Shown piece after piece: positions 4,685 to 34,825 of a DNA stretch of 64,000 nt. The notes below the pieces were generated by a model that was not told the DNA's origin, did not search any database, and was given only the letters and a program-made list of their open reading frames with translations. The translations under genes were made by a program, and so were the position numbers. The stretch spans positions 2,189 to 66,188 of the forward strand of contig CAKNIZ010000006.1 of assembly GCA_930980855.1 (NCBI GenBank), read 5' to 3'. Position 1 is the stretch's first letter. Every line of letters begins with the position of its first letter. Source of the DNA: an uncultured Clostridium sp. (lineage in GTDB: Bacteria; Bacillota; Clostridia; TANB77; CAG-508).

Positions 4685-5419
4685 CTACAATTTATATGTT
4701 CCTAATGTAAATATTTTAAGTAGGGCTATTAACATAATATGTTCAGGTATGAACATTACTAAAAATGTTGCTATAACTATAAATGGTCCAAATGGAATAT
4801 ATTCATTTGATTTTTTCTTTTTACTTACAATTAGAATTATACTAATTATAGCTGCTAATAAGAATGCTAGTATCGAAATTATAACAATGTTGTATGCTCC
4901 AAAAATTATTCCTAGAGCTCCCATTAATTTAACATCACCAAAGCCCATTGCTTCTTTTCCTGCAATAAGTCCACCTAACAATGTGATGATTAAGAATATT
5001 CCTCCTCCAATTGCTAATCCTAATAATTTGTCTATTAATATACTTAATCCTCCAGTTCCTTCAATAAAAGCAAATAATAGACCTATTTCAAATAGTGTTA
5101 AAGTTAATCTATTTGGTATGATTTGCTCTTTATAGTCTATTGCAAATGCTGATACTAACAATGGCGCAACAAGTAAATATTTTATTAATTCTAAATTCCA
5201 CCCACATATAAATAATAGCACAACATATATAATTGCAGTTATATACATGAATTTATAATTTAGTTTCATGTCTTTTATGTATACCTTATAGAAGTCTTTG
5301 CTTAATATTGGTTTGTGATTACTCATTCTTATTGTTGCCCAGTCTAGCAATTGTCCTACTCCCAGCCCTAATAGTCCTATAAAAAAATAATATAATATAT
5401 GAATTTCATTTATGTACAT
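4685..5419 (-). CDS. prepilin (type IV leader) peptidase, A24 family
   Basis: Polytopic membrane protein with the GFGDVKLMGALG motif. Start moved to ATG 5417-5419, behind a GAGGAG RBS. Confidence 0.8.
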   Translation of the reverse strand: MYINEIHILYYFFIGLLGLGVGQLLDWATIRMSNHKPILSKDFYKVYIKDMKLNYKFMYITAIIYVVLLFICGWNLELIKYLLVAPLLVSAFAIDYKEQIIPNRLTLTLFEIGLLFAFIEGTGGLSILIDKLLGLAIGGGIFLIITLLGGLIAGKEAMGFGDVKLMGALGIIFGAYNIVIISILAFLLAAIISIILIVSKKKKSNEYIPFGPFIVIATFLVMFIPEHIMLIALLKIFTLGTYKL

Positions 5420-5438
5420 TTTAATTAATCTCCTCTCA

Positions 5439-5927
5439 CTATTTTGCACTATAATTCTTTAAAATTCTTTTTTCCAATTTTCTTTTTATATTGTTCAATT
5501 TTACTTTTTCTTCACAAATTGGATTTGTTAATATTGAAAACATTTTCATTCTTTTTGCACCTAGGACATCAGTAAATATCTGGTCCCCAACTTCTGCAAT
5601 CTTTTCATTGTTCTGAATATTCATCAATTTTTTTGCTCTTTTAAAACCAATTTTAGTTGGTTTTAGTGCAAAGTACACATAAGGTATATCTAGTATTTTC
5701 GCTATTTTCTCTACTTTACGCTTTTTTATACTATTTGAAATTATGCAAAACTTTATATTGTTTTCTTTCAGCTTTTGAATCCATTCTTGTAATCCTTCAA
5801 GTGGATTCCTATCTAAGTCTATAAGTGTGTTATCTGAATCTAAAAACATATATTCTATATTGTTCTTTTTTAACATTTTTATTGTTATATCTGTAATTTT
5901 ATTCACATGTTCATCTGGTAAAAGCAT
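5439..5927 (-). CDS. YqeG-family HAD-IIIA phosphatase
   Basis: HAD motif I FLDSDNTL, size 162 aa, N-terminus typical of the YqeG family. Confidence 0.8.
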   Translation of the reverse strand: MLLPDEHVNKITDITIKMLKKNNIEYMFLDSDNTLIDLDRNPLEGLQEWIQKLKENNIKFCIISNSIKKRKVEKIAKILDIPYVYFALKPTKIGFKRAKKLMNIQNNEKIAEVGDQIFTDVLGAKRMKMFSILTNPICEEKVKLNNIKRKLEKRILKNYSAK

Positions 5928-5964
5928 TTGTATTTTTCTCCTTAAATTATATCCATATTATATT

Positions 5965-6004
5965 TATAAAAAATATATATGTCAAGGATTATTCCTTGAC
6001 ATAT
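5965..6004 (-). terminator. Rho-independent terminator downstream of tex
   Basis: 12-bp stem ATATGTCAAGGA/TCCTTGACATAT (5977-6004), followed on the minus strand by a U-run. Confidence 0.8.
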
Positions 6005-6005
6005 T

Positions 6006-8159
6006 TTAACCAATATTTTTCATTGATAGCTTCACTTTTTGTCTTTCCTTGTCGATGCCTATGACTCTAACTTTTACAATATCTCCAATAGATACTATAT
6101 CACTTGGTTTCTTTACAAATTTATCACTTAATTCAGAAATATGTACTAGTCCATCATGTTTTACGCCAATATCTACAAACGCTCCAAAATCAGTTATATT
6201 TCTTACAGTTCCTGTTAATACCATTTCTTCTTGTAAGTCCTCAAATTTTAGGACATCATTTCTAAGTATTGGTTTTGGCATATCTTCTCTTGGGTCTCTT
6301 CCTGGCTTTGAAAGTTCTTTGATTATATCTTCTAAAGTCATCTCTCCAATATCTAGTTCTTTTGAAAGTTCTTTTACTTTTACTCCACTTAATTTCTTTC
6401 TTATCTCTTCTAATTTATCTTTTTCTAATAAATCTTCTTTTTTGTATCCAATTTTATTTAATAGTTTTTCAGCTGCTTCATAACTTTCTGGATGGACTGC
6501 CGTAATTTCTAATGGATTTTTTCCGCCTGGTATTCTGATGAATCCCGCACACTGTTCATAAGCTACATTTCCTAATTTAGGTACTTTTAAAAGTTCTTTT
6601 CTTTCTTTTAGTTTACCATTTTCATCTCTATATTTTACAATATTTTTTGCTATTGTTTTATTTATTCCAGAAACATATGAAAGGAGTGATGCTGTTGCTG
6701 TGTTTACGTCAACACCTACTGTATTTACTGCATCTTCTACCACTCCTGTTAGACTTTCAGATAATTTCTTTTGGTCAACATCATGTTGATATTGTCCAAT
6801 TCCTATTGCTTTTGGGTCTATTTTCACAAATTCAGCAAGTGGGTCTTGTAATCTTCTTGCTATTGAAATTGCTCCTCTTAATGAAACATTTAAGTCAGGA
6901 TATTCTTCTGTTGCAAGTTTAGAAGCAGAATATACAGAAGCTCCCGCTTCACTAACTATTGTATAATATACGTCTTTATTAAATTGTTCTTTCACTTTTT
7001 TCAAAGTATTAGAAACAAAGATTTCAGACTCTCTTGATGCTGTTCCATTACCTATTGCTATCATCTGTATATTATCTTTTGCAATAAGTCTAATAAGCTC
7101 TTTTTCTGCTCCTTCTATATCATTTTGTGGCTCTGTTGGATAAACTACTCCTGTATCTAATACTTTTCCAGTCTCGTCTATAACAGCTAATTTGCATCCT
7201 GTTCTATATGCTGGGTCAAAACCTAATACTGTCAAACCTTTTAAAGGTGCTCCTAGTAACAATTGTTTTGCATTTTTTCCAAATACTTCAATCGCCTGTT
7301 TATCTGCTTTTTCAGTCAAGTCAGACCTAATCTCCCTATCTAAAGATGGCTCAATAAGTCTTTTAAAACTATCTTCGATTGTTTCAAGAAGTATTTTTTC
7401 ATATCTAGGATTTTTAATCACTCTTTTTGCTATTAAACCTATAATTTTATCTGCAGGTTTTTCTAAAGATACTTTTAGAAATTCTTCGTTTTCTCCTCTA
7501 TTTATTGCTAAAATTCTATGGCTAGGGATAGTGCTAATTTTTTCACTATAGTCGTTATACATACTATATGTAGGATTTTCTTCCTTAGCATTTTTAGTAT
7601 GTATAATTCCTTCTCTATAGTAAATTTTCTTTATTTGCTTTCTATATTCTGCATCATCAGAAATATCTTCTGCAATAATATCTTTTGCACCACCAATAGC
7701 TTCTTCTACAGTTTTTACTTCATCATTAATGAATTCTTTTGCAATTTCTTCAAGTGGTTTAGTTTCCTTTTGCTCTTTAATAATTTGAGCTAGTGGTTCT
7801 AAACCTTTCGCTTTGGCAACTGTTGCTCTTGTCTTTTTCTTTTGCTTGTATGGCCTATATATATCCTCTACTTCTGTTAGAGTTTGCGCTATTTCCAGAT
7901 TTTTTACAATTTCATCTGTTAGCTTTCCTTGATTTTCTATTGAGGTTTTTACTTCTTCTTTTCTTTCTTCAAGGTTTCTTAAATATTTTAATCTTTCGTC
8001 TAAGTTTCTTAAAACTTCGTCACTTAGTCCTCCAGTTACTTCTTTTCTATATCTTGCAATAAATGGAATTGTATTACCACTATCTATAAGTTCAATAGTT
8101 TTTTCCACTTGATTTTCTTTAACATTTAATTCATTTGCAATAATTTCTACAATATTCAT
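6006..8159 (-). CDS. tex: Tex-like transcription accessory protein (S1 RNA-binding domain protein)
   Basis: 717 aa. Tex N-terminal/HTH, YqgF-like and HhH regions, plus a C-terminal S1 domain (GTVRNITDFGAFVDIG...HISEL). Confidence 0.95.
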   Translation of the reverse strand: MNIVEIIANELNVKENQVEKTIELIDSGNTIPFIARYRKEVTGGLSDEVLRNLDERLKYLRNLEERKEEVKTSIENQGKLTDEIVKNLEIAQTLTEVEDIYRPYKQKKKTRATVAKAKGLEPLAQIIKEQKETKPLEEIAKEFINDEVKTVEEAIGGAKDIIAEDISDDAEYRKQIKKIYYREGIIHTKNAKEENPTYSMYNDYSEKISTIPSHRILAINRGENEEFLKVSLEKPADKIIGLIAKRVIKNPRYEKILLETIEDSFKRLIEPSLDREIRSDLTEKADKQAIEVFGKNAKQLLLGAPLKGLTVLGFDPAYRTGCKLAVIDETGKVLDTGVVYPTEPQNDIEGAEKELIRLIAKDNIQMIAIGNGTASRESEIFVSNTLKKVKEQFNKDVYYTIVSEAGASVYSASKLATEEYPDLNVSLRGAISIARRLQDPLAEFVKIDPKAIGIGQYQHDVDQKKLSESLTGVVEDAVNTVGVDVNTATASLLSYVSGINKTIAKNIVKYRDENGKLKERKELLKVPKLGNVAYEQCAGFIRIPGGKNPLEITAVHPESYEAAEKLLNKIGYKKEDLLEKDKLEEIRKKLSGVKVKELSKELDIGEMTLEDIIKELSKPGRDPREDMPKPILRNDVLKFEDLQEEMVLTGTVRNITDFGAFVDIGVKHDGLVHISELSDKFVKKPSDIVSIGDIVKVRVIGIDKERQKVKLSMKNIG

Positions 8160-29084: not shown

Positions 29085-30188
29085 TTATTGTATTCCTGTT
29101 TTGTTTATTATTTCGTCACTAATCTCTTGTACTGTTTCAGATGGTGTATAATCTGTTTGACCAAATAATTCTTCATGTAATGATTTTACATTTGCTTCTA
29201 AGTTAATTGGCACACCATAATATACTCCACCTATCATACTGCCTTTATTTTCTTTTGGCCAGCCATCACTTTCTTCTATTTTCATAGATAAAAGAGTTGG
29301 AGCTAACCCTATAATATCATTGCTACTCATATTCGTAGATATTTTTGGAAGCATTATATTAACAACATTTAGTAACTGACTCATGCTTAAAGTTTTAGCT
29401 TTATTAACCATTGCCTCGATTACTTCTCTCATTCTTTCGGCTCTTTTTAAGTCTCCTCCTGCTGTATAACGGATTCTCGAATAAGCTAGAGCTTGAACTC
29501 CATCTAAATTGTATGTTCCTGCTGTTGTAATGTGACTTGAATTATGTCCTGTTACTCTATTATTTTCATCTATATATTTATTGATGTATTTTATTTCTTC
29601 ACTATCAACAGCTATTTTAATTCCACCTAATGCATCTACAGCATCTACTACAGCGTCAAAGTTTACAGTTACATATTCTTGTATATTAAGATCTAAATTT
29701 GCATTTAAAGTACTTACTGCAAGTTCTGCTCCACCATATGAATAAGCATGTGTTACTTTATCTAAATTTCTTCCTGTTAATTTTAAATAAGTATCTCTAT
29801 ATACCGAAACTAGTTTTACTTCACTTGTTTTTTTATTTATAGATGCAATTATGATACAATCACTTCTATTGCCTCTTCCGTAATCATCTGCTCTTGAGTC
29901 TATTCCAAATAAAGCTATATTTCTATAGTCACTTAATTCATCTGCGACAGCATCATCTATACTAATTGCATTTATATCTATTTCCTCTTGGTTCATTTCA
30001 CCAAGTTTACTAGCTATAAATGTGTATCCTGCTGCTAGTATTGCAGCTATTATTACAACAATAATTATTAAGACTATTAAAAAGATTTTTAGTCCTTTTC
30101 TTTTCTTTTTAGGCTTATTCTCCTTATTATTTTTTGAATAATTCTTTTCTGGTTCTCTCATTCTTTTTGCGTTATTATGTGTACTCAT
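29085..30188 (-). CDS. LytR-CpsA-Psr (LCP) family glycopolymer transferase
   Basis: TM anchor plus LCP domain (NIALFGIDSR...RSDCIIIASI). Start set at ATG 30186-30188 after GAGGTG. Confidence 0.85.
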   Translation of the reverse strand: MSTHNNAKRMREPEKNYSKNNKENKPKKKRKGLKIFLIVLIIIVVIIAAILAAGYTFIASKLGEMNQEEIDINAISIDDAVADELSDYRNIALFGIDSRADDYGRGNRSDCIIIASINKKTSEVKLVSVYRDTYLKLTGRNLDKVTHAYSYGGAELAVSTLNANLDLNIQEYVTVNFDAVVDAVDALGGIKIAVDSEEIKYINKYIDENNRVTGHNSSHITTAGTYNLDGVQALAYSRIRYTAGGDLKRAERMREVIEAMVNKAKTLSMSQLLNVVNIMLPKISTNMSSNDIIGLAPTLLSMKIEESDGWPKENKGSMIGGVYYGVPINLEANVKSLHEELFGQTDYTPSETVQEISDEIINKTGIQ

Positions 30189-30361
30189 TATTTCACCTCT
30201 AATATATTTTATTTCTCGACACATTGTAACACTATATATTTGTTTTGTAAACATTTAATTTAAAGTTTTTTAGCTATTTTTTCCTACTAAAAATTAAAAG
30301 AACGCCTATTTTTTTTAGACGCTCTTTTTTAGTTGCAACTTTATTTTTTATTTTATATCTT

Positions 30362-30709
30362 TTATATATCATATTTTCTTGATTTAATAAATGCAAATGC
30401 ACCTACTGATATTGCTATTACAGCTATTCCTGCTACAATATAAACATCTGTCTCTCCTGTTTGTGGTAAGTCTTTTTCTGCATCATTGATTTCGTTCACT
30501 TTTAGAACATTTTCTTTTTCCTCAGCATTGTTTACAGGACGAGCAGTATTTGTGTTTGTGTTATTAGTGTTAGCAGTATTAACATTATTACCATTAGTAT
30601 TAGTTGGTCTTAAGTTAATTCCATTAGCATTTGCTCTTGTCATTGTAAAAAATAAAACTGCAAAGATCATAACTATTGAAATTGTTACATACTTCATTGA
30701 TTTTTTCAT
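30362..30709 (-). CDS. small LPXTG-anchored surface protein, N/T-rich
   Basis: Signal peptide, low-complexity NTNGNNVNTANTNNTNTNTA, then LPQTG, a hydrophobic stretch and an RK tail. Confidence 0.8.
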   Translation of the reverse strand: MKKSMKYVTISIVMIFAVLFFTMTRANANGINLRPTNTNGNNVNTANTNNTNTNTARPVNNAEEKENVLKVNEINDAEKDLPQTGETDVYIVAGIAVIAISVGAFAFIKSRKYDI

Positions 30710-30881
30710 AGTATTCTCCCTTTCTTCTTTAGACTCTAATTTTATTATTTGTTTTTTTCAACAAATTATAGCAAGAAAAATATAACATTTTTTCTACTAC
30801 TATCTATTTTATACTTCTTTTCGACATTCGTCAACATTTTTTAAAAATTTTATTAAATTTTTAGTTTTTTATGATTTTTAG

Positions 30882-30910
30882 TTGCTTTTTACTTTATTTC
30901 CATATATAAT
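30882..30910 (+). promoter_or_regulatory. sigma-A type promoter of the 28-aa ORF
   Basis: TTGCTT (30882-30887), 17-nt spacer, TATAAT (30905-30910). Confidence 0.65.
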
Positions 30911-30960
30911 ACTTCCAATCCTTCTCAAAAGGAATTTCTAGAGAAAGGAGGAAAATATTA

Positions 30961-31047
30961 ATGACATCTTATGATTTAATTTGGTTATTAATATTAGAAT
31001 TATTAAAAAATTCTAATGAAAATAATCAAACTCAAAATGAGGAATAG
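30961..31047 (+). CDS. 28-aa peptide MTSYDLIWLLILELLKNSNENNQTQNEE (candidate type I toxin-like or regulatory small protein)
   Basis: Strong RBS AAAGGAGG 8-9 nt upstream, its own promoter, and its own terminator. Below the length cutoff of the ORF track. Confidence 0.55.
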   Translation: MTSYDLIWLLILELLKNSNENNQTQNEE

Positions 31048-31066
31048 TGTTCGCAACCTATTTCGG

Positions 31067-31094
31067 GAGTGGTCTCGTCAACCACTCTTTTTTT
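31067..31094 (+). terminator. Rho-independent terminator of the 28-aa ORF
   Basis: GAGTGGT-ctcgtca-ACCACTC, followed by seven T. Confidence 0.85.
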
Positions 31095-31098
31095 ACTT

Positions 31099-31175
31099 AA
31101 AAAAAGATATGTGCCGTCTACACATATCCAAATATTAATTGACATCTTATAACTCAAAATGTTACTCGAGTTTAT
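31099..31175 (-). ncRNA. predicted ~75-nt small RNA, convergent with the 28-aa ORF, carrying a ~20-nt complement to its start-codon region
   Basis: Minus-strand promoter at 31182-31210. Minus-strand terminator GATATGTG-n7-CACATATC plus a U7 run (31099-31128). Segment 31130-31150 is a near-exact direct repeat of 30953-30972, so the minus-strand transcript is antisense to the mRNA start region. Confidence 0.5.
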
Positions 31176-31181
31176 AGATAT

Positions 31182-31210
31182 AGTATACTACAATATTTAT
31201 TATATGTCAA
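31182..31210 (-). promoter_or_regulatory. sigma-A type promoter of the predicted sRNA
   Basis: On the minus strand: TTGACA (31205-31210), 17-nt spacer, TATACT (31182-31187). Confidence 0.6.
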
Positions 31211-31229
31211 ACTTTTTTTATTATTCTTT

Positions 31230-32315
31230 TTACACATTAAACTTAAATTCCACTATATCCCCATTTTGCATAACATAGTCTTTTCCTTCTAGTCTAACTA
31301 ATCCCGCTTCTTTTGCTTTTTGGTAAGAACCCTCTTTTATTAAATCATCATATGAAACAATTTCTGCTTTTATGAATCCTCTTTCAAAATCAGTATGTAT
31401 CTTTCCAGCTGCTTGAGGAGCTTTAGTTCCTTTTTTAATAGTCCAAGCTCTAACTTCTTTTTTTCCAGCTGTTAAGAATGACATTAATCCTAATAAATCA
31501 TAACTCTTTTTTATTACTTTATCTAGTCCTGATTCATCAAGTCCCATAGCTTCTAGCATTTCTTGTTTTTCTTCACCTTCTAAGCTTGAAAGTTCTTCTT
31601 CTATTTTTACGCAAAGAGGAATTACTGCTGAATTTTCTTTTTCTGCATATTCTCTTACTTTTTTTACATATTCATTTTCTGTTCCAATTTCTGATTCTGA
31701 AATATTTGCAACATATAATATTTGTTTCATTGTAAGTAAAAAAGCATCTTTTATTATTTCTTTTTCTTCATCTGTAAGTTCTAGTATTCTTGCTGGCTTT
31801 CCTTGTTCTAATACTTCTCTTACTTTTTTAAATGTATCTTCTTCTTGTAAATATTTTTTGTCTCCTTTTGCAAGTTTAGCAGCTCTATCGATTCTTTTAT
31901 TGACAGTTTCCAAATCTGCTAATACTAGTTCTAAATTTATTGTTTCTATATCTCTTATTGGGTCTACACTTCCGTCTACATGAACTATATTGGAATCATC
32001 AAAGCATCTAACAACTTCAACAATTGAATCTGTTTCTCTTATATGTGATAAGAATTTATTTCCTAGTCCTTCTCCTTTACTAGCTCCTTTAACTAATCCT
32101 GCTATATCCACAAATTCAATTATTGCATGTGTTATCTTTTCTGCTACATACATTTTTCCAAGTACATCTAGTCTTTCGTCTGGAACTGGTACTACTCCAA
32201 CATTTGGTTCTATTGTACAAAAAGGATAATTAGCACATTCTGCTCCTGCATTTGTTATACTATTAAATAGTGTACTTTTTCCCACGTTTGGCAATCCTAC
32301 TATTCCTATTTTCAT
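31230..32315 (-). CDS. ychF: redox-regulated ATPase YchF
   Basis: MKIGIVGLPNVGKST G1 motif. Full-length YchF/OLA1 architecture with a C-terminal TGS-like domain. Confidence 0.95.
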   Translation of the reverse strand: MKIGIVGLPNVGKSTLFNSITNAGAECANYPFCTIEPNVGVVPVPDERLDVLGKMYVAEKITHAIIEFVDIAGLVKGASKGEGLGNKFLSHIRETDSIVEVVRCFDDSNIVHVDGSVDPIRDIETINLELVLADLETVNKRIDRAAKLAKGDKKYLQEEDTFKKVREVLEQGKPARILELTDEEKEIIKDAFLLTMKQILYVANISESEIGTENEYVKKVREYAEKENSAVIPLCVKIEEELSSLEGEEKQEMLEAMGLDESGLDKVIKKSYDLLGLMSFLTAGKKEVRAWTIKKGTKAPQAAGKIHTDFERGFIKAEIVSYDDLIKEGSYQKAKEAGLVRLEGKDYVMQNGDIVEFKFNV

Positions 32316-32347
32316 TTCTGCCTCCTAATTTTATTATCTAATTCTTA

Positions 32348-32432
32348 TTGTATATTTTAAATTTTACAGTTCCGCGCAGCTTGGAGAAACTTTAGTTTCG
32401 ACAGCAAGGAACAAAAAATTCAAAATATACAA
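32348..32432. repeat. hairpin element copy C
   Basis: TTGTATATTTTAAATTTTACAGTTCCGCG...CTTGGAGA...CGACAGCAAGGAACAAAAAATTCAAAATATACAA. The terminal arms are inverted repeats around a GC-rich core. Homologous to copy D in reverse orientation. Confidence 0.8.
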
Positions 32433-32461
32433 TTAAATTTTATAGCACATATGTTAATTCT

Positions 32462-34825
32462 TTACTCATCTTTACTAGCTTTTGCATATTTCTTTAGTGT
32501 TTGATATACCATTGCGTTTATTGTTCCTGGTATATCTTTTGTTCCTGCTGGTACTCCTGTTAATATTTCTATTCCTTCGTCTATATTAGAAACTGCGTAA
32601 ATATGGAATTTGCCATTTTTAACTGCATTTACTATTTCATCATCTAGGTTTAAATTTTGTATATTTTGTCTAGGAATTAAAACTCCTTGTTTTCCATTTA
32701 ATCCTTTTAGTTTACAAATTTCAAAGTATCCTTCTATTTTTTCATTTACCCCACCAATTGCTTGTATTTCACCTTTTTGGTTTACTGAACCTGTTACTGC
32801 TATTCCTTGATTTATTGGAACTCCTGAAAGATTTGATAGAAGTGCATATAACTCTGTACTTGACGCACTATCTCCATCTACTCCATTATATAACTGTTCA
32901 AAGCAGATACTAGCTGTAAGTGATAATGGCATATCTTTTGCAAATTTTTCTCCTAAGTATCCATTTAAAATTAATATACCTTTTGAGTGAGATGAGCCAG
33001 AAAGTTCAACTTCTCTTTCTATATCTATTATTCCTTTTTTACCTGTATAAGTATTTACTGTAATTCTTACAGGTTTTCCAAATGAATAATCTCCTATACT
33101 CATTACTGTAAGACCATTTATTTGCCCTACTTTTTCTCCATCTGTATCTATTAGTAGTGTTCCATCTTCTATCATTTGAGTATATTTATCATCATATTTT
33201 TTTAATCTATTTTTTCTTTCATCTAATGCTTTTTCTATATACTCTTTTGTAACTACTTTTGACTTATCTAATCTTGCCCATGTAGCTGCTTCTGCTATTA
33301 CTTGAGCTAGTTCTCCAAATCTTGTTGATATTTTATTTTGATTATTTGAAAGTCTAGTTGAATATTCTGCAAGTCTTGCCACAGCAAATTTATCTAAATG
33401 TGGAAGCTCATCGTCTTCACAATATCCATGAACAAATTTTGCTAAATCTTTTAAGTTTTGCTCATTTAAAGGTGCATCGTCTTCAAATTCTACCTTTATT
33501 TTAAATAGTTTTCTAAAATCGCTATCTACTGAAAGTAGAGTTTGATATACATTTTCATTTCCTATAATTATTACTTTTAAGTCTAATGGTATTGGTTCTG
33601 GTTTTAGTGATACCATTACCATTGATGTTTTTTGGTCAACAGAATTATCTATTCCTAATTCTTTATTTCTTAATACTTTTTTTAGATTATCATAAGCTGC
33701 TGGGTTTGTTAATAAATCATTTGCTTGGAATATTATATATCCACCATTTGCTTTATGAAGAAGTCCTGGTCTTATCATTGTATAGTCAGTTTTTAGTATT
33801 CCATAATGATTTTCATATTCTAGTCTACCAAAAATATTGCTAAAACTATAATTTGAGTCCATTATAACTGGAGCTCCTTCTGTTGCACTATTGTCTACAA
33901 ATAAATTTACTCTATAGTTATCCCAAGGATTTTGTTCTATTATTTTTGGTTGTCCTTCTGGAACTTTTTGTTCATCTTTAGTAAATTTATTTATATTTTT
34001 TAATATATCTTTTCTAACACCATCTAAAAATTTATTTATTTTTTTGTTTCTTTTGAATTTTGATTTTACAAATGATATATGTCCTTCTACAGAAAGTGAA
34101 GCTATACTTGATTGCCATTCTGATACTTTCTTTTCTGATTCTTGTTCTATTTCTTTTATTTTTCCTATTACTTGTATTATTTGCCTTTGAACTATTGTTG
34201 ATTTTTCTTCATATTCTTTTTTTATTTTATCATCTAATTTATCAAATTCTTCTTCTTTGATGATTTCTCCATTTACAATAGGCATCATATATATTCCATT
34301 GTCTGATGCTTTTACTTGGAAGCCATATTTTGATGATTGTACATTTAAATCTTCTAATAGCTTTGTCCTTTTTTCTTGATATTTTTGTATTATTATATTT
34401 TTTTCTTTCTCAAAATCATTGTTATTAAATGTACTTTTTATTTCTGTTTTTATATCTTTGATGAATCTTTCCATTGCATCAACAAATTCTTTTCCTTGTC
34501 CTGCTGGTAAGTTTAATGCTACTGGCTCATTTGGATTTTCGAAATTATATATATAGCACCAATCTTGTGGAGTTTTCTTATTTTTACTTATTTTATCTAA
34601 ATAATTTTTCGTATACATTGTTTTTCCTACTCCAGAAGGTCCTTCTAGATATAGGTTATATCCATTTACATCTACATTTAATCCAAATTTTAGTGAATCT
34701 ACTCCTCTTTCTTGTCCTATCCCAGCATAGTTTCTTTCTAATTCTTCTGTTGTTACAAATTCAAAAATATCTGGATTGCAGACATATTTTAATTTTTTAT
34801 ATGATACTTCCTTTGTATTTTTCAT
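32462..34825 (-). CDS. Lon-like ATP-dependent protease (LonC-type: AAA-like domain with helical insertion plus S16 protease domain)
   Basis: Walker A GPSGVGKT, a long K/E-rich helical insertion, and a C-terminal Lon protease domain (GDSASSTELYALLS...GGVNEKIEG). Start set at ATG 34823-34825 after AAAGGAA. The track start at 34861 is a TTG. Confidence 0.8.
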   Translation of the reverse strand: MKNTKEVSYKKLKYVCNPDIFEFVTTEELERNYAGIGQERGVDSLKFGLNVDVNGYNLYLEGPSGVGKTMYTKNYLDKISKNKKTPQDWCYIYNFENPNEPVALNLPAGQGKEFVDAMERFIKDIKTEIKSTFNNNDFEKEKNIIIQKYQEKRTKLLEDLNVQSSKYGFQVKASDNGIYMMPIVNGEIIKEEEFDKLDDKIKKEYEEKSTIVQRQIIQVIGKIKEIEQESEKKVSEWQSSIASLSVEGHISFVKSKFKRNKKINKFLDGVRKDILKNINKFTKDEQKVPEGQPKIIEQNPWDNYRVNLFVDNSATEGAPVIMDSNYSFSNIFGRLEYENHYGILKTDYTMIRPGLLHKANGGYIIFQANDLLTNPAAYDNLKKVLRNKELGIDNSVDQKTSMVMVSLKPEPIPLDLKVIIIGNENVYQTLLSVDSDFRKLFKIKVEFEDDAPLNEQNLKDLAKFVHGYCEDDELPHLDKFAVARLAEYSTRLSNNQNKISTRFGELAQVIAEAATWARLDKSKVVTKEYIEKALDERKNRLKKYDDKYTQMIEDGTLLIDTDGEKVGQINGLTVMSIGDYSFGKPVRITVNTYTGKKGIIDIEREVELSGSSHSKGILILNGYLGEKFAKDMPLSLTASICFEQLYNGVDGDSASSTELYALLSNLSGVPINQGIAVTGSVNQKGEIQAIGGVNEKIEGYFEICKLKGLNGKQGVLIPRQNIQNLNLDDEIVNAVKNGKFHIYAVSNIDEGIEILTGVPAGTKDIPGTINAMVYQTLKKYAKASKDE

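Follow-up and report, generated by a model that had tools for sequence, protein, structure and literature searches.

A mobile cassette of a small-protein gene and a predicted convergent antisense RNA in uncultured gut Clostridia, a candidate type I toxin-antitoxin-like module of par-like design

The hallmark of type I toxins is a hydrophobic, potential transmembrane domain, and homology searches for the known toxins of this type have been largely unsuccessful in Clostridia (both PMC6563280). [quoted passage not shown] The pairs tisB/istR, zor/orz and shoB/ohsC are instead divergent, with sRNAs that pair in the 5' UTR and not over the start codon (PMC4147584). Here we describe a cassette whose layout is closest to that of par of Enterococcus faecalis pAD1 and of par-like loci of Firmicutes, including SprA1/SprA1AS of S. 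aureus (PMC7472228).

The cassette lies in the window, by which we mean the whole 64-kb stretch of DNA that was analysed. It very probably comprises a real small-protein gene repressed by a neighbouring convergent sRNA. With moderate confidence, we read the sequence as that of a type I toxin-antitoxin (TA)-like pair of par-like design, and probably of a new family of RNA-controlled TA-like modules.

Layout of the cassette and the repeat within it

The cassette site is a 520-nt spacer between the gene for a 115-aa LPXTG-anchored protein (30362-30709, minus strand) and ychF (31230-32315, minus strand). The sequence-only reading had proposed a self-contained small-ORF gene at this site, together with a convergent sRNA that is antisense to its translation-initiation region. 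This core reading is supported by the conservation of the cassette in four lineages and four genomic contexts, by purifying selection on the peptide, by sRNA promoter hexamers that stay invariant around a variable spacer and by the lineage-specific matching of sRNA and mRNA, and the individual signals on which it was built are all present in the sequence.

On the plus strand, the promoter TTGCTT-17-TATAAT (30882-30910) has a perfect -10 hexamer (30905-30910), which does not vary among lineages B, C and D. The -35 hexamer TTGCTT (30882-30887), 17 nt upstream, is weak, with only three of its six positions fitting TTGACA, and for that reason the promoter is absent from the list returned by the promoter scan. 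A strong Shine-Dalgarno (SD) sequence, AAAGGAGG (30944-30951), lies 9 nt 5' of the ATG of the 28-aa ORF (30961-31047), which encodes MTSYDLIWLLILELLKNSNENNQTQNEE. The intrinsic terminator of the small-protein mRNA (31065-31096), identified in the terminator scan, consists of a stem-loop at 31065-31089 followed by a T run, giving a predicted mRNA of ~180 nt. The start of the ORF carries a signal of its own. GGAGG-N5-10-ATG occurs 13 times in 128 kb (both strands of the window); the 28-aa ORF is the sole case on the plus strand, and 11 of the other 12 instances are the starts of ORFs of at least 46 aa. The pattern is a specific marker of true starts in this genome.

On the minus strand, the promoter TTGACA-17-TATACT (31210-31182; 11/12) is the best promoter-like site of the region in the promoter scan and looks stronger than the promoter of the mRNA. 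Together with an intrinsic terminator that has its own hairpin (31098-31129, hairpin at 31129-31105, again from the terminator scan), it bounds a predicted sRNA of ~77 nt (31098-31175), which had been put at ~75 nt from the sequence. The two terminators face each other with their 3' ends a few bases apart, and their hairpins are 15 nt apart in the window. A search of positions 29500-32500 with Rfam covariance models gave two chance-level snoRNA matches (E = 7-10), both outside the cassette.

The sRNA gene and the mRNA share a direct repeat, which had been noticed from the letters alone and was verified here: 31130-31150 is identical to 30953-30972 except for a single inserted T. A second common word, the 11-nt AACTCAAAATG, is found at 31029-31039 and at 31151-31161, and in the sRNA gene it directly adjoins the first repeat. 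Because the two units are convergent, the predicted sRNA is complementary to the mRNA from the SD-AUG spacer through the AUG to codons 2-4. The score of the repeat (17, at +1/-3/-3) is beyond chance, being equalled in one of 20,000 dinucleotide-shuffled versions of the sRNA and in none of the 6,346 real 78-nt windows of the 64-kb sequence; when the comparison was confined to the initiation region from -20 to +15, none of 20,000 shuffles reached it. Lenient scoring (+1/-1) discriminates less, with ~1% of real windows of this 28% G+C sequence reaching the score of the repeat. Nor is this a common genomic repeat, a concern that accompanied the original proposal, as the 64 kb contain the 20-mer a single time and the 11-mer core at these two places alone.

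Conservation, predicted pairing and mobility

We compared the DNA of four lineages of the cassette, each in a context of its own. Lineage A is that of the window, between ychF and the LPXTG-protein gene; lineage B (contigs L104-L118) lies between mgtE and htpG, lineage C (L119) beside a sigma-70 fragment and lineage D (L120 and L121) downstream of an FtsW/RodA-like gene. The last three are mutually close, and the 29-aa variants P0097, P0098, P0100, P0101 and P0231 stand outside this comparison. All lineages share one order of parts, namely TATAAT, an SD-occluding hairpin, GGAGG, the ORF, the plus-strand terminator, the minus-strand terminator, the antisense segment and TATACT-17-TTGACA; the encoded protein is 28-29 aa long throughout. 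The conserved block begins with the mRNA promoter and stops exactly at the -35 of the sRNA. Identity among B, C and D is 92-100% in the functional parts, as against 15-57% in the flanks.

The promoter and terminator of the predicted sRNA are conserved across this comparison. TTGACA, TATACT and the distance of 17 nt separating these hexamers show 100% conservation across the lineages; the sequence of the spacer itself has an identity of 71-76% in comparisons of B, C and D and of 41% between A and B. The sRNA terminator has an invariant stem and a varying loop. In the mRNA terminator, 9 of 9 stem pairs are kept in six sequences, with only G-C, G-U and A-U exchanges. Lineage D has a third hairpin between the two terminators, and the homologous predicted sRNAs of B, C and D are 68-69 nt long.

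Folding predictions suggest two constraints on translation of the mRNA. In the minimum free energy (MFE) fold, a 5' UTR hairpin (30919-30949), in which the anti-SD sequence UCCUUCUC pairs with GAGAAAGGA, covers most of the SD sequence; the unpaired probability across 30946-30953 in the full-length mRNA is 0.25. An SD-occluding hairpin of this kind is predicted in all four lineages, with differing loop sequences. In the predicted fold of the sRNA itself, hairpins form at the 5' end and at the terminator, and the middle part, which contains the antisense sequence, is largely accessible. When the two RNAs are folded together, sRNA nt 15-46, corresponding to the 32-nt antisense segment at 31130-31161, pair contiguously with mRNA positions 30953-30974 and 31031-31039, with a gain of about -20 kcal/mol over the separate folds. 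The first of these stretches is target site 1, which comprises the SD-AUG spacer, the AUG and codons 2-5. The second falls within target site 2, AACUCAAAAUG (31029-31039, repeat D1), close to the 3' end of the ORF, which complements sRNA nt 15-25 and is found in lineage A only. An internal mRNA hairpin (30975-31035, inverted repeat I1), retained in the cofold and flanked by both paired stretches, sets the two sites side by side.

Predicted duplexes of 24-33 bp span from -10 to +19/+30 in all four lineages, and B, C and D carry an equivalent direct repeat that differs in sequence from that of A. In A, the SD-AUG spacer reads AAAAUAUUA and the sRNA gene carries AAATATTAAT; in B-D, the spacer reads UGAACAUCUA and the sRNA gene carries GAACATCT, each sRNA fitting its own spacer. 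Codons 3-7 of B-D (ATCTTTTGATCTT), which depart from those of A by Y4F and one synonymous change at L6, are likewise matched by the sRNAs of B-D. Cognate duplexes are predicted at -32.4 kcal/mol for A and ~ -25.5 kcal/mol for B-D, as against ~ -20.5 kcal/mol for crosses between A and B-D. Lineage-specific sequences maintain the complementarity at a pS of 0.4-0.75. These matches make a good but not overwhelming case that sRNA-mRNA complementarity co-varies between lineages, as the case consists essentially of one deep comparison, A against B-D, because B, C and D are close to one another. The same pattern would arise if gene conversion made the repeats evolve in concert, which too would imply that the repeats are maintained.

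Comparison of contigs at the ychF site establishes the cassette as a discrete insertion (about 30852-31229) that is polymorphic in presence between ychF and the LPXTG-protein gene. Among contigs encoding an identical or 93-98% identical LPXTG protein, three of the same species (L081, L082 and L107) have the cassette, at no less than 99.7% identity, and L083, L098, L100, L101 and L102 have a different long-hairpin element of ~100 nt at the same site. L002 has a 445-aa ORF there. L001 has neither the cassette nor the hairpin element, and its ychF stop codon almost abuts the LPXTG promoter region. The best YchF matches, at 87-92% identity, are from MAGs and from Clostridium sp. CAG:793, the organism being one of the uncultured gut Clostridia, and the cassette was absent next to ychF in 80 of 80 related loci from 80 related species. 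At the mgtE/htpG site, too, the cassette is an insertion, since relatives (L123-L130) with an MgtE at 85% identity have a spacer of only 89 nt and no cassette. Because close relatives have such empty sites, we regard the cassette as a discrete, mobile unit. A partner protein gene travelling with it was found in none of the four contexts.

A few copies of the cassette are damaged. In L122, the -10, the SD sequence and the first nine codons are replaced and the sRNA is intact (a single metagenomic contig); L118 has a premature stop and L107 has lost its stop codon (one metagenomic contig each). These three copies fit a TA life cycle.

The small protein and its relatives

We searched 1.8 billion representative proteins exhaustively with HMMER, using a 30-codon query stretch that extends two codons beyond the 28-codon ORF. 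The search recovered five relatives, peptides of 29-45 aa with identities of 70-78%, and a word search found further homologues. The commonest variant, P0226 (MTSFDLIWLLIQELLKSKNENNQENNKKD), is called on 497 contigs. In annotations, the gene is usually missing or is given a false 45-aa N-terminal extension that starts within its own promoter.

The pattern of substitution marks the 28-aa ORF as a protein-coding gene under purifying selection. Among B, C and D, seven of the nine nucleotide changes in the ORF are synonymous, compared with 16% of sites being synonymous (P = 6e-5), and pN/pS is 0.04-0.07; between A and the others it is 0.18-0.30. The alignment has 13 invariant columns, comprising M, S, the run D-L-I-W-L-L-I, E, L-K and a single Q in the tail. 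The family has L, Q or R at residue 12, with Q or R in most homologues. The polar tail varies in sequence and in charge, with net charges among homologues of -4 to 0. G and P do not occur in the family.

Residues 3-16 form an amphipathic helix with a hydrophobic moment (muH) of 0.35-0.57, and AF2 predicts a single helix, with a pLDDT of 88-92 over the first 20 residues and ~63 for the tail. The peptide has no signal peptide. Its N-terminal half had been described from sequence as hydrophobic or amphipathic. The peptide is not a typical hydrophobic toxin. Apolar runs do not exceed 6-7 residues, and a 19-residue segment averages at best 0.2-0.6 on the Kyte-Doolittle scale, where a threshold of ~1.6 applies, so that a transmembrane-length segment is absent. 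As the peptide thus lacks typical hydrophobic-toxin character, we speak of it only as a putative toxin.

Searches for known relatives were negative. The peptide of A matched nothing in Pfam, NCBIfam or PHROGs at E <= 10, and that of B nothing in Pfam at E <= 1; the peptide motif occurred in none of the papers in the collection searched. The cassette, compared by blastn with plasmids and phages, and the peptide, compared by tblastn with plasmids, gave nothing or chance A/T-rich matches, and IMG/VR, scanned with the core of the sRNA and with two degenerate patterns for the peptide, contained no match. A metagenome scan with a pattern requiring Y4 and a hydrophobic residue 12 (which excludes B-D, with F4/Q12) gave 14 matches, all unrelated. 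These are transmembrane segments, with YD..W...LD.VK, of large proteins that presumably resemble P-type proton ATPases.

Proposed mechanism, rival readings and known systems

In the mechanism that we propose, the cassette forms a two-gene unit that is complete in itself and horizontally mobile. Its plus-strand promoter, perfect at -10 and weak at -35, would drive an mRNA of ~180 nt for a protein of 28-29 aa, whose translation would be held by two locks, the SD-occluding 5' hairpin and the sRNA. The latter, of 68-78 nt, would be transcribed convergently from a near-consensus promoter just downstream, end at its own terminator and pair from about -10 to +19/+30 around the AUG. Such pairing would block ribosome binding and perhaps make a substrate for RNase III. 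The small protein would be harmful when made without the sRNA. We infer from the sequence comparisons that both transcripts exist and that the sRNA represses translation of the small protein. Toxicity of the protein is suggested by the double lock, the autonomy of the cassette, its strain-variable distribution over several contexts and the lack of a partner gene. A more specific and distinctly tentative version of this proposal is that the cassette represents a new type I TA-like class, in which a putative toxin that does not span the membrane, made up of a soluble or interfacial 16-residue amphipathic helix and a disordered polar tail, has an intracellular target, and in which a par-like design with two terminators and no kissing loop evolved independently of Fst and hops between intergenic sites of uncultured human-gut Clostridia.

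The same architecture could also serve a product other than a toxin, such as an sRNA-gated accessory micropeptide, for instance with a regulatory or stress function, that binds a cellular target and whose expression threshold is set by the sRNA. A 16-residue amphipathic helix with the invariant D-L-I-W-L-L-I-x-E-x-L-K suits protein binding or oligomerisation, and the peptide has no transmembrane-length hydrophobic segment and matches no toxin HMM. We nevertheless consider this reading rather unlikely, given that the cassette moves autonomously between unrelated intergenic sites and varies between strains, as is typical of selfish TA cassettes, that a double lock with a stronger antisense promoter would be unusual for a harmless product, and that there is no conserved neighbouring partner gene. 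Short amphipathic helices with a polar tail are also known from peptides of the phenol-soluble modulin (PSM) or delta-toxin type, and the short amphipathic helix, the polar tail and the missing signal peptide would suit an exported peptide of this kind, whether a PSM-like cytolysin, a bacteriocin or a signal, with its production controlled by the antisense RNA. No transporter, immunity, receptor or modification gene is found in the four contexts, however, and the net charge of -4 to 0 argues against a conserved membrane-lytic cationic surface, making export improbable. The missing partner genes in every context likewise make a RiPP or quorum-peptide precursor unlikely, and a leader peptide or attenuator is excluded, there being no downstream gene on the plus strand.

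A reading that dispenses with a dedicated sRNA would take the hairpin as the terminator of ychF, the promoter-like site as a product of chance and the repeat as a neutral local duplication. In the window, the minus-strand unit does lie directly downstream of ychF on the same strand, and A/T-rich genomes yield many promoter-like sites (11 found in the scan, 7.8 expected). Already disfavoured by the other genomic contexts, which contradict the notion of the sRNA as a mere 3' UTR of ychF, this reading is very improbable: no minus-strand gene upstream reads into the sRNA unit in B, C or D, the promoter hexamers and their spacing stay invariant around a spacer only 41-76% identical, and complementarity persists through lineage-specific sequences at the synonymous divergence given above.

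We return to the TA-like reading and to its place among known systems. In type I systems, a protein of <60 aa is encoded by an mRNA bound by a dedicated antisense RNA, and by computed pairing the cassette would be of this kind. The peptide departs from the usual transmembrane toxin pattern, as judged by Kyte-Doolittle hydropathy and by the single amphipathic helix predicted by AF2. To our knowledge, type I TA pairs and sRNA-controlled micropeptides are almost unknown in the uncultured, A/T-rich Clostridia, which are abundant in the human gut. The cassette offers a cleanly bounded, widespread family (with ~500 contigs for the main variant) in which each regulatory element has comparative support. 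Should the peptide be toxic, it would widen the range of type I toxins and provide a compact orthogonal RNA switch for Clostridia; if it is not, the cassette would be a rare instance of a mobile gene for a micropeptide that is kept in check by a dedicated antisense lock of its own.

The pairs tisB/istR, zor/orz and shoB/ohsC, which the sequence-only reading had named as analogues, resemble the cassette in having an sRNA gene that is adjacent to, and does not overlap, the small-protein gene, in a complementarity of ~20 nt and in an sRNA that acts on translation, as it is predicted to do here. Their divergent arrangement and pairing in the 5' UTR (PMC4147584) make them less apt than par/Fst-RNA II, as they have long 5' UTRs with standby-site pairing, whereas the cassette is convergent with a predicted duplex over the spacer, the AUG and the first codons. 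The type I TA pairs of C. difficile (CD2517.1/RCd8 and others; PMC6563280) share with the cassette a host among the Clostridia, a convergent arrangement, small genes that escape annotation and an accessory, variable distribution. Unlike the cassette, they overlap extensively and have true cis-antisense RNAs, and their toxins, of 30-56 aa, have a transmembrane N-terminus and a lysine-rich tail (PMC6563280). Many of these pairs reside in prophages, whereas the cassette has no match in IMG/VR or in the phage and plasmid collections.

The comparison with par is the closest, and it too has its limits. The shared bidirectional terminator of par is absent, with two hairpins of unrelated sequence in its place in all lineages, and because no terminator is shared, the cassette also lacks the complementary terminator loops from which the kissing complex of par begins. 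Unlike Fst, the cassette peptide has no transmembrane-length helix and no P/D/S/TxxxG motif, and it matches no Fst or other Pfam or NCBIfam model; the W of Fst stands between the transmembrane helix and the tail, whereas W8 of the cassette peptide lies within a short apolar run. [quoted passage not shown] What it has in common with par is the design. As in par, promoters are convergent (30882-30910 on the plus strand and 31210-31182 on the minus strand), direct repeats (30953-30972 with 31130-31150, and 31029-31039 with 31151-31161) give complementarity over the start codon and the SD region, and an intramolecular 5' stem-loop, here a predicted one, sequesters the SD sequence. The peptide measures ~30 aa and is hydrophobic in its N-terminal part and charged or polar in its tail, and the interaction sequences are poorly conserved among homologues while the architecture is retained. 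A double lock combined with an apparently stronger promoter for the sRNA is the logic described for par-like type I TA systems (PMC7472228).

Start of the peptide gene

Gene callers often assign the small-protein gene of the cassette a product of 44-61 aa, as at L108 (4001-4138), a locus with the mgtE/htpG context, and at other loci of lineages B, C and D. The called ATG of these products falls within the promoter of the cassette itself, where it overlaps the TATAAT or slightly precedes it; the additional N-terminal residues are an artefact that arises from minimum-length rules. The true start of the peptide is the ATG preceded by a Shine-Dalgarno sequence, which lies 15-32 codons downstream of the called one, depending on the call. 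Across the window (1-64000), where the minus strand carries almost all long ORFs, the small-protein gene is the sole plus-strand start with a GGAGG-N5-10-ATG signal.

Damaged copies and terminator spacing

Three copies of the peptide gene are damaged. At L122 (405-554) unrelated sequence stands in place of the -10, the Shine-Dalgarno sequence and codons 1-9, with the sRNA gene intact; at L118 (4001-4117), of lineage B, there is a premature stop at codon 23; and in the same-species carrier L107 (714-905) the stop codon is lost, giving a 63-aa read-through, and the terminator stem is changed. As each of these copies comes from a single metagenomic contig, the damage is possibly assembly error. 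In lineage D (L120, about 575-605, and L121) an extra 30-nt hairpin, GGAAAGT TCT ACTTTCC, is inserted between the two cassette terminators, and therefore the distance separating the convergent 3' ends is without constraint.

Neighbouring genes and spacers

The cassette adjoins a minus-strand gene for an LPXTG-anchored protein of 115 aa (window 30362-30709), the middle part of which is low-complexity and N/T-rich. This protein evolves fast, with 62-77% identity in other homologue clusters, against 65-92% for YchF in related species; none of its roughly 90 homologue clusters is named. In a related MAG without the cassette (L002), whose YchF is 91% identical, a 445-aa ORF (5154-6491) with a P-loop-like motif, GARQTGKST, sits in this ychF-LPXTG spacer, which is thus an insertion hotspot whose contents differ from lineage to lineage. 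In L123, a relative with an empty site, the first mgtE copy is preceded by a called 29-aa ORF (8-97) that has no relation to the peptide family. A terminator-like hairpin, which may be part of an mgtE leader or riboswitch, overlaps this ORF.

Long hairpin elements

Long imperfect hairpins, 85-110 nt in length, make up a family of elements whose ends are conserved as TTGTATATTT(T)AAATTT ... AAATATACAA. The window has one copy between lon and ychF (32349-32431), and other strains of this species carry another where the cassette would lie (L083, 2192-2305; also L098, L101 and L102). The copy at the cassette's site has an RNA fold of -42.8 kcal/mol (z = -4.3), and the element may be REP/MITE-like or a long terminator.
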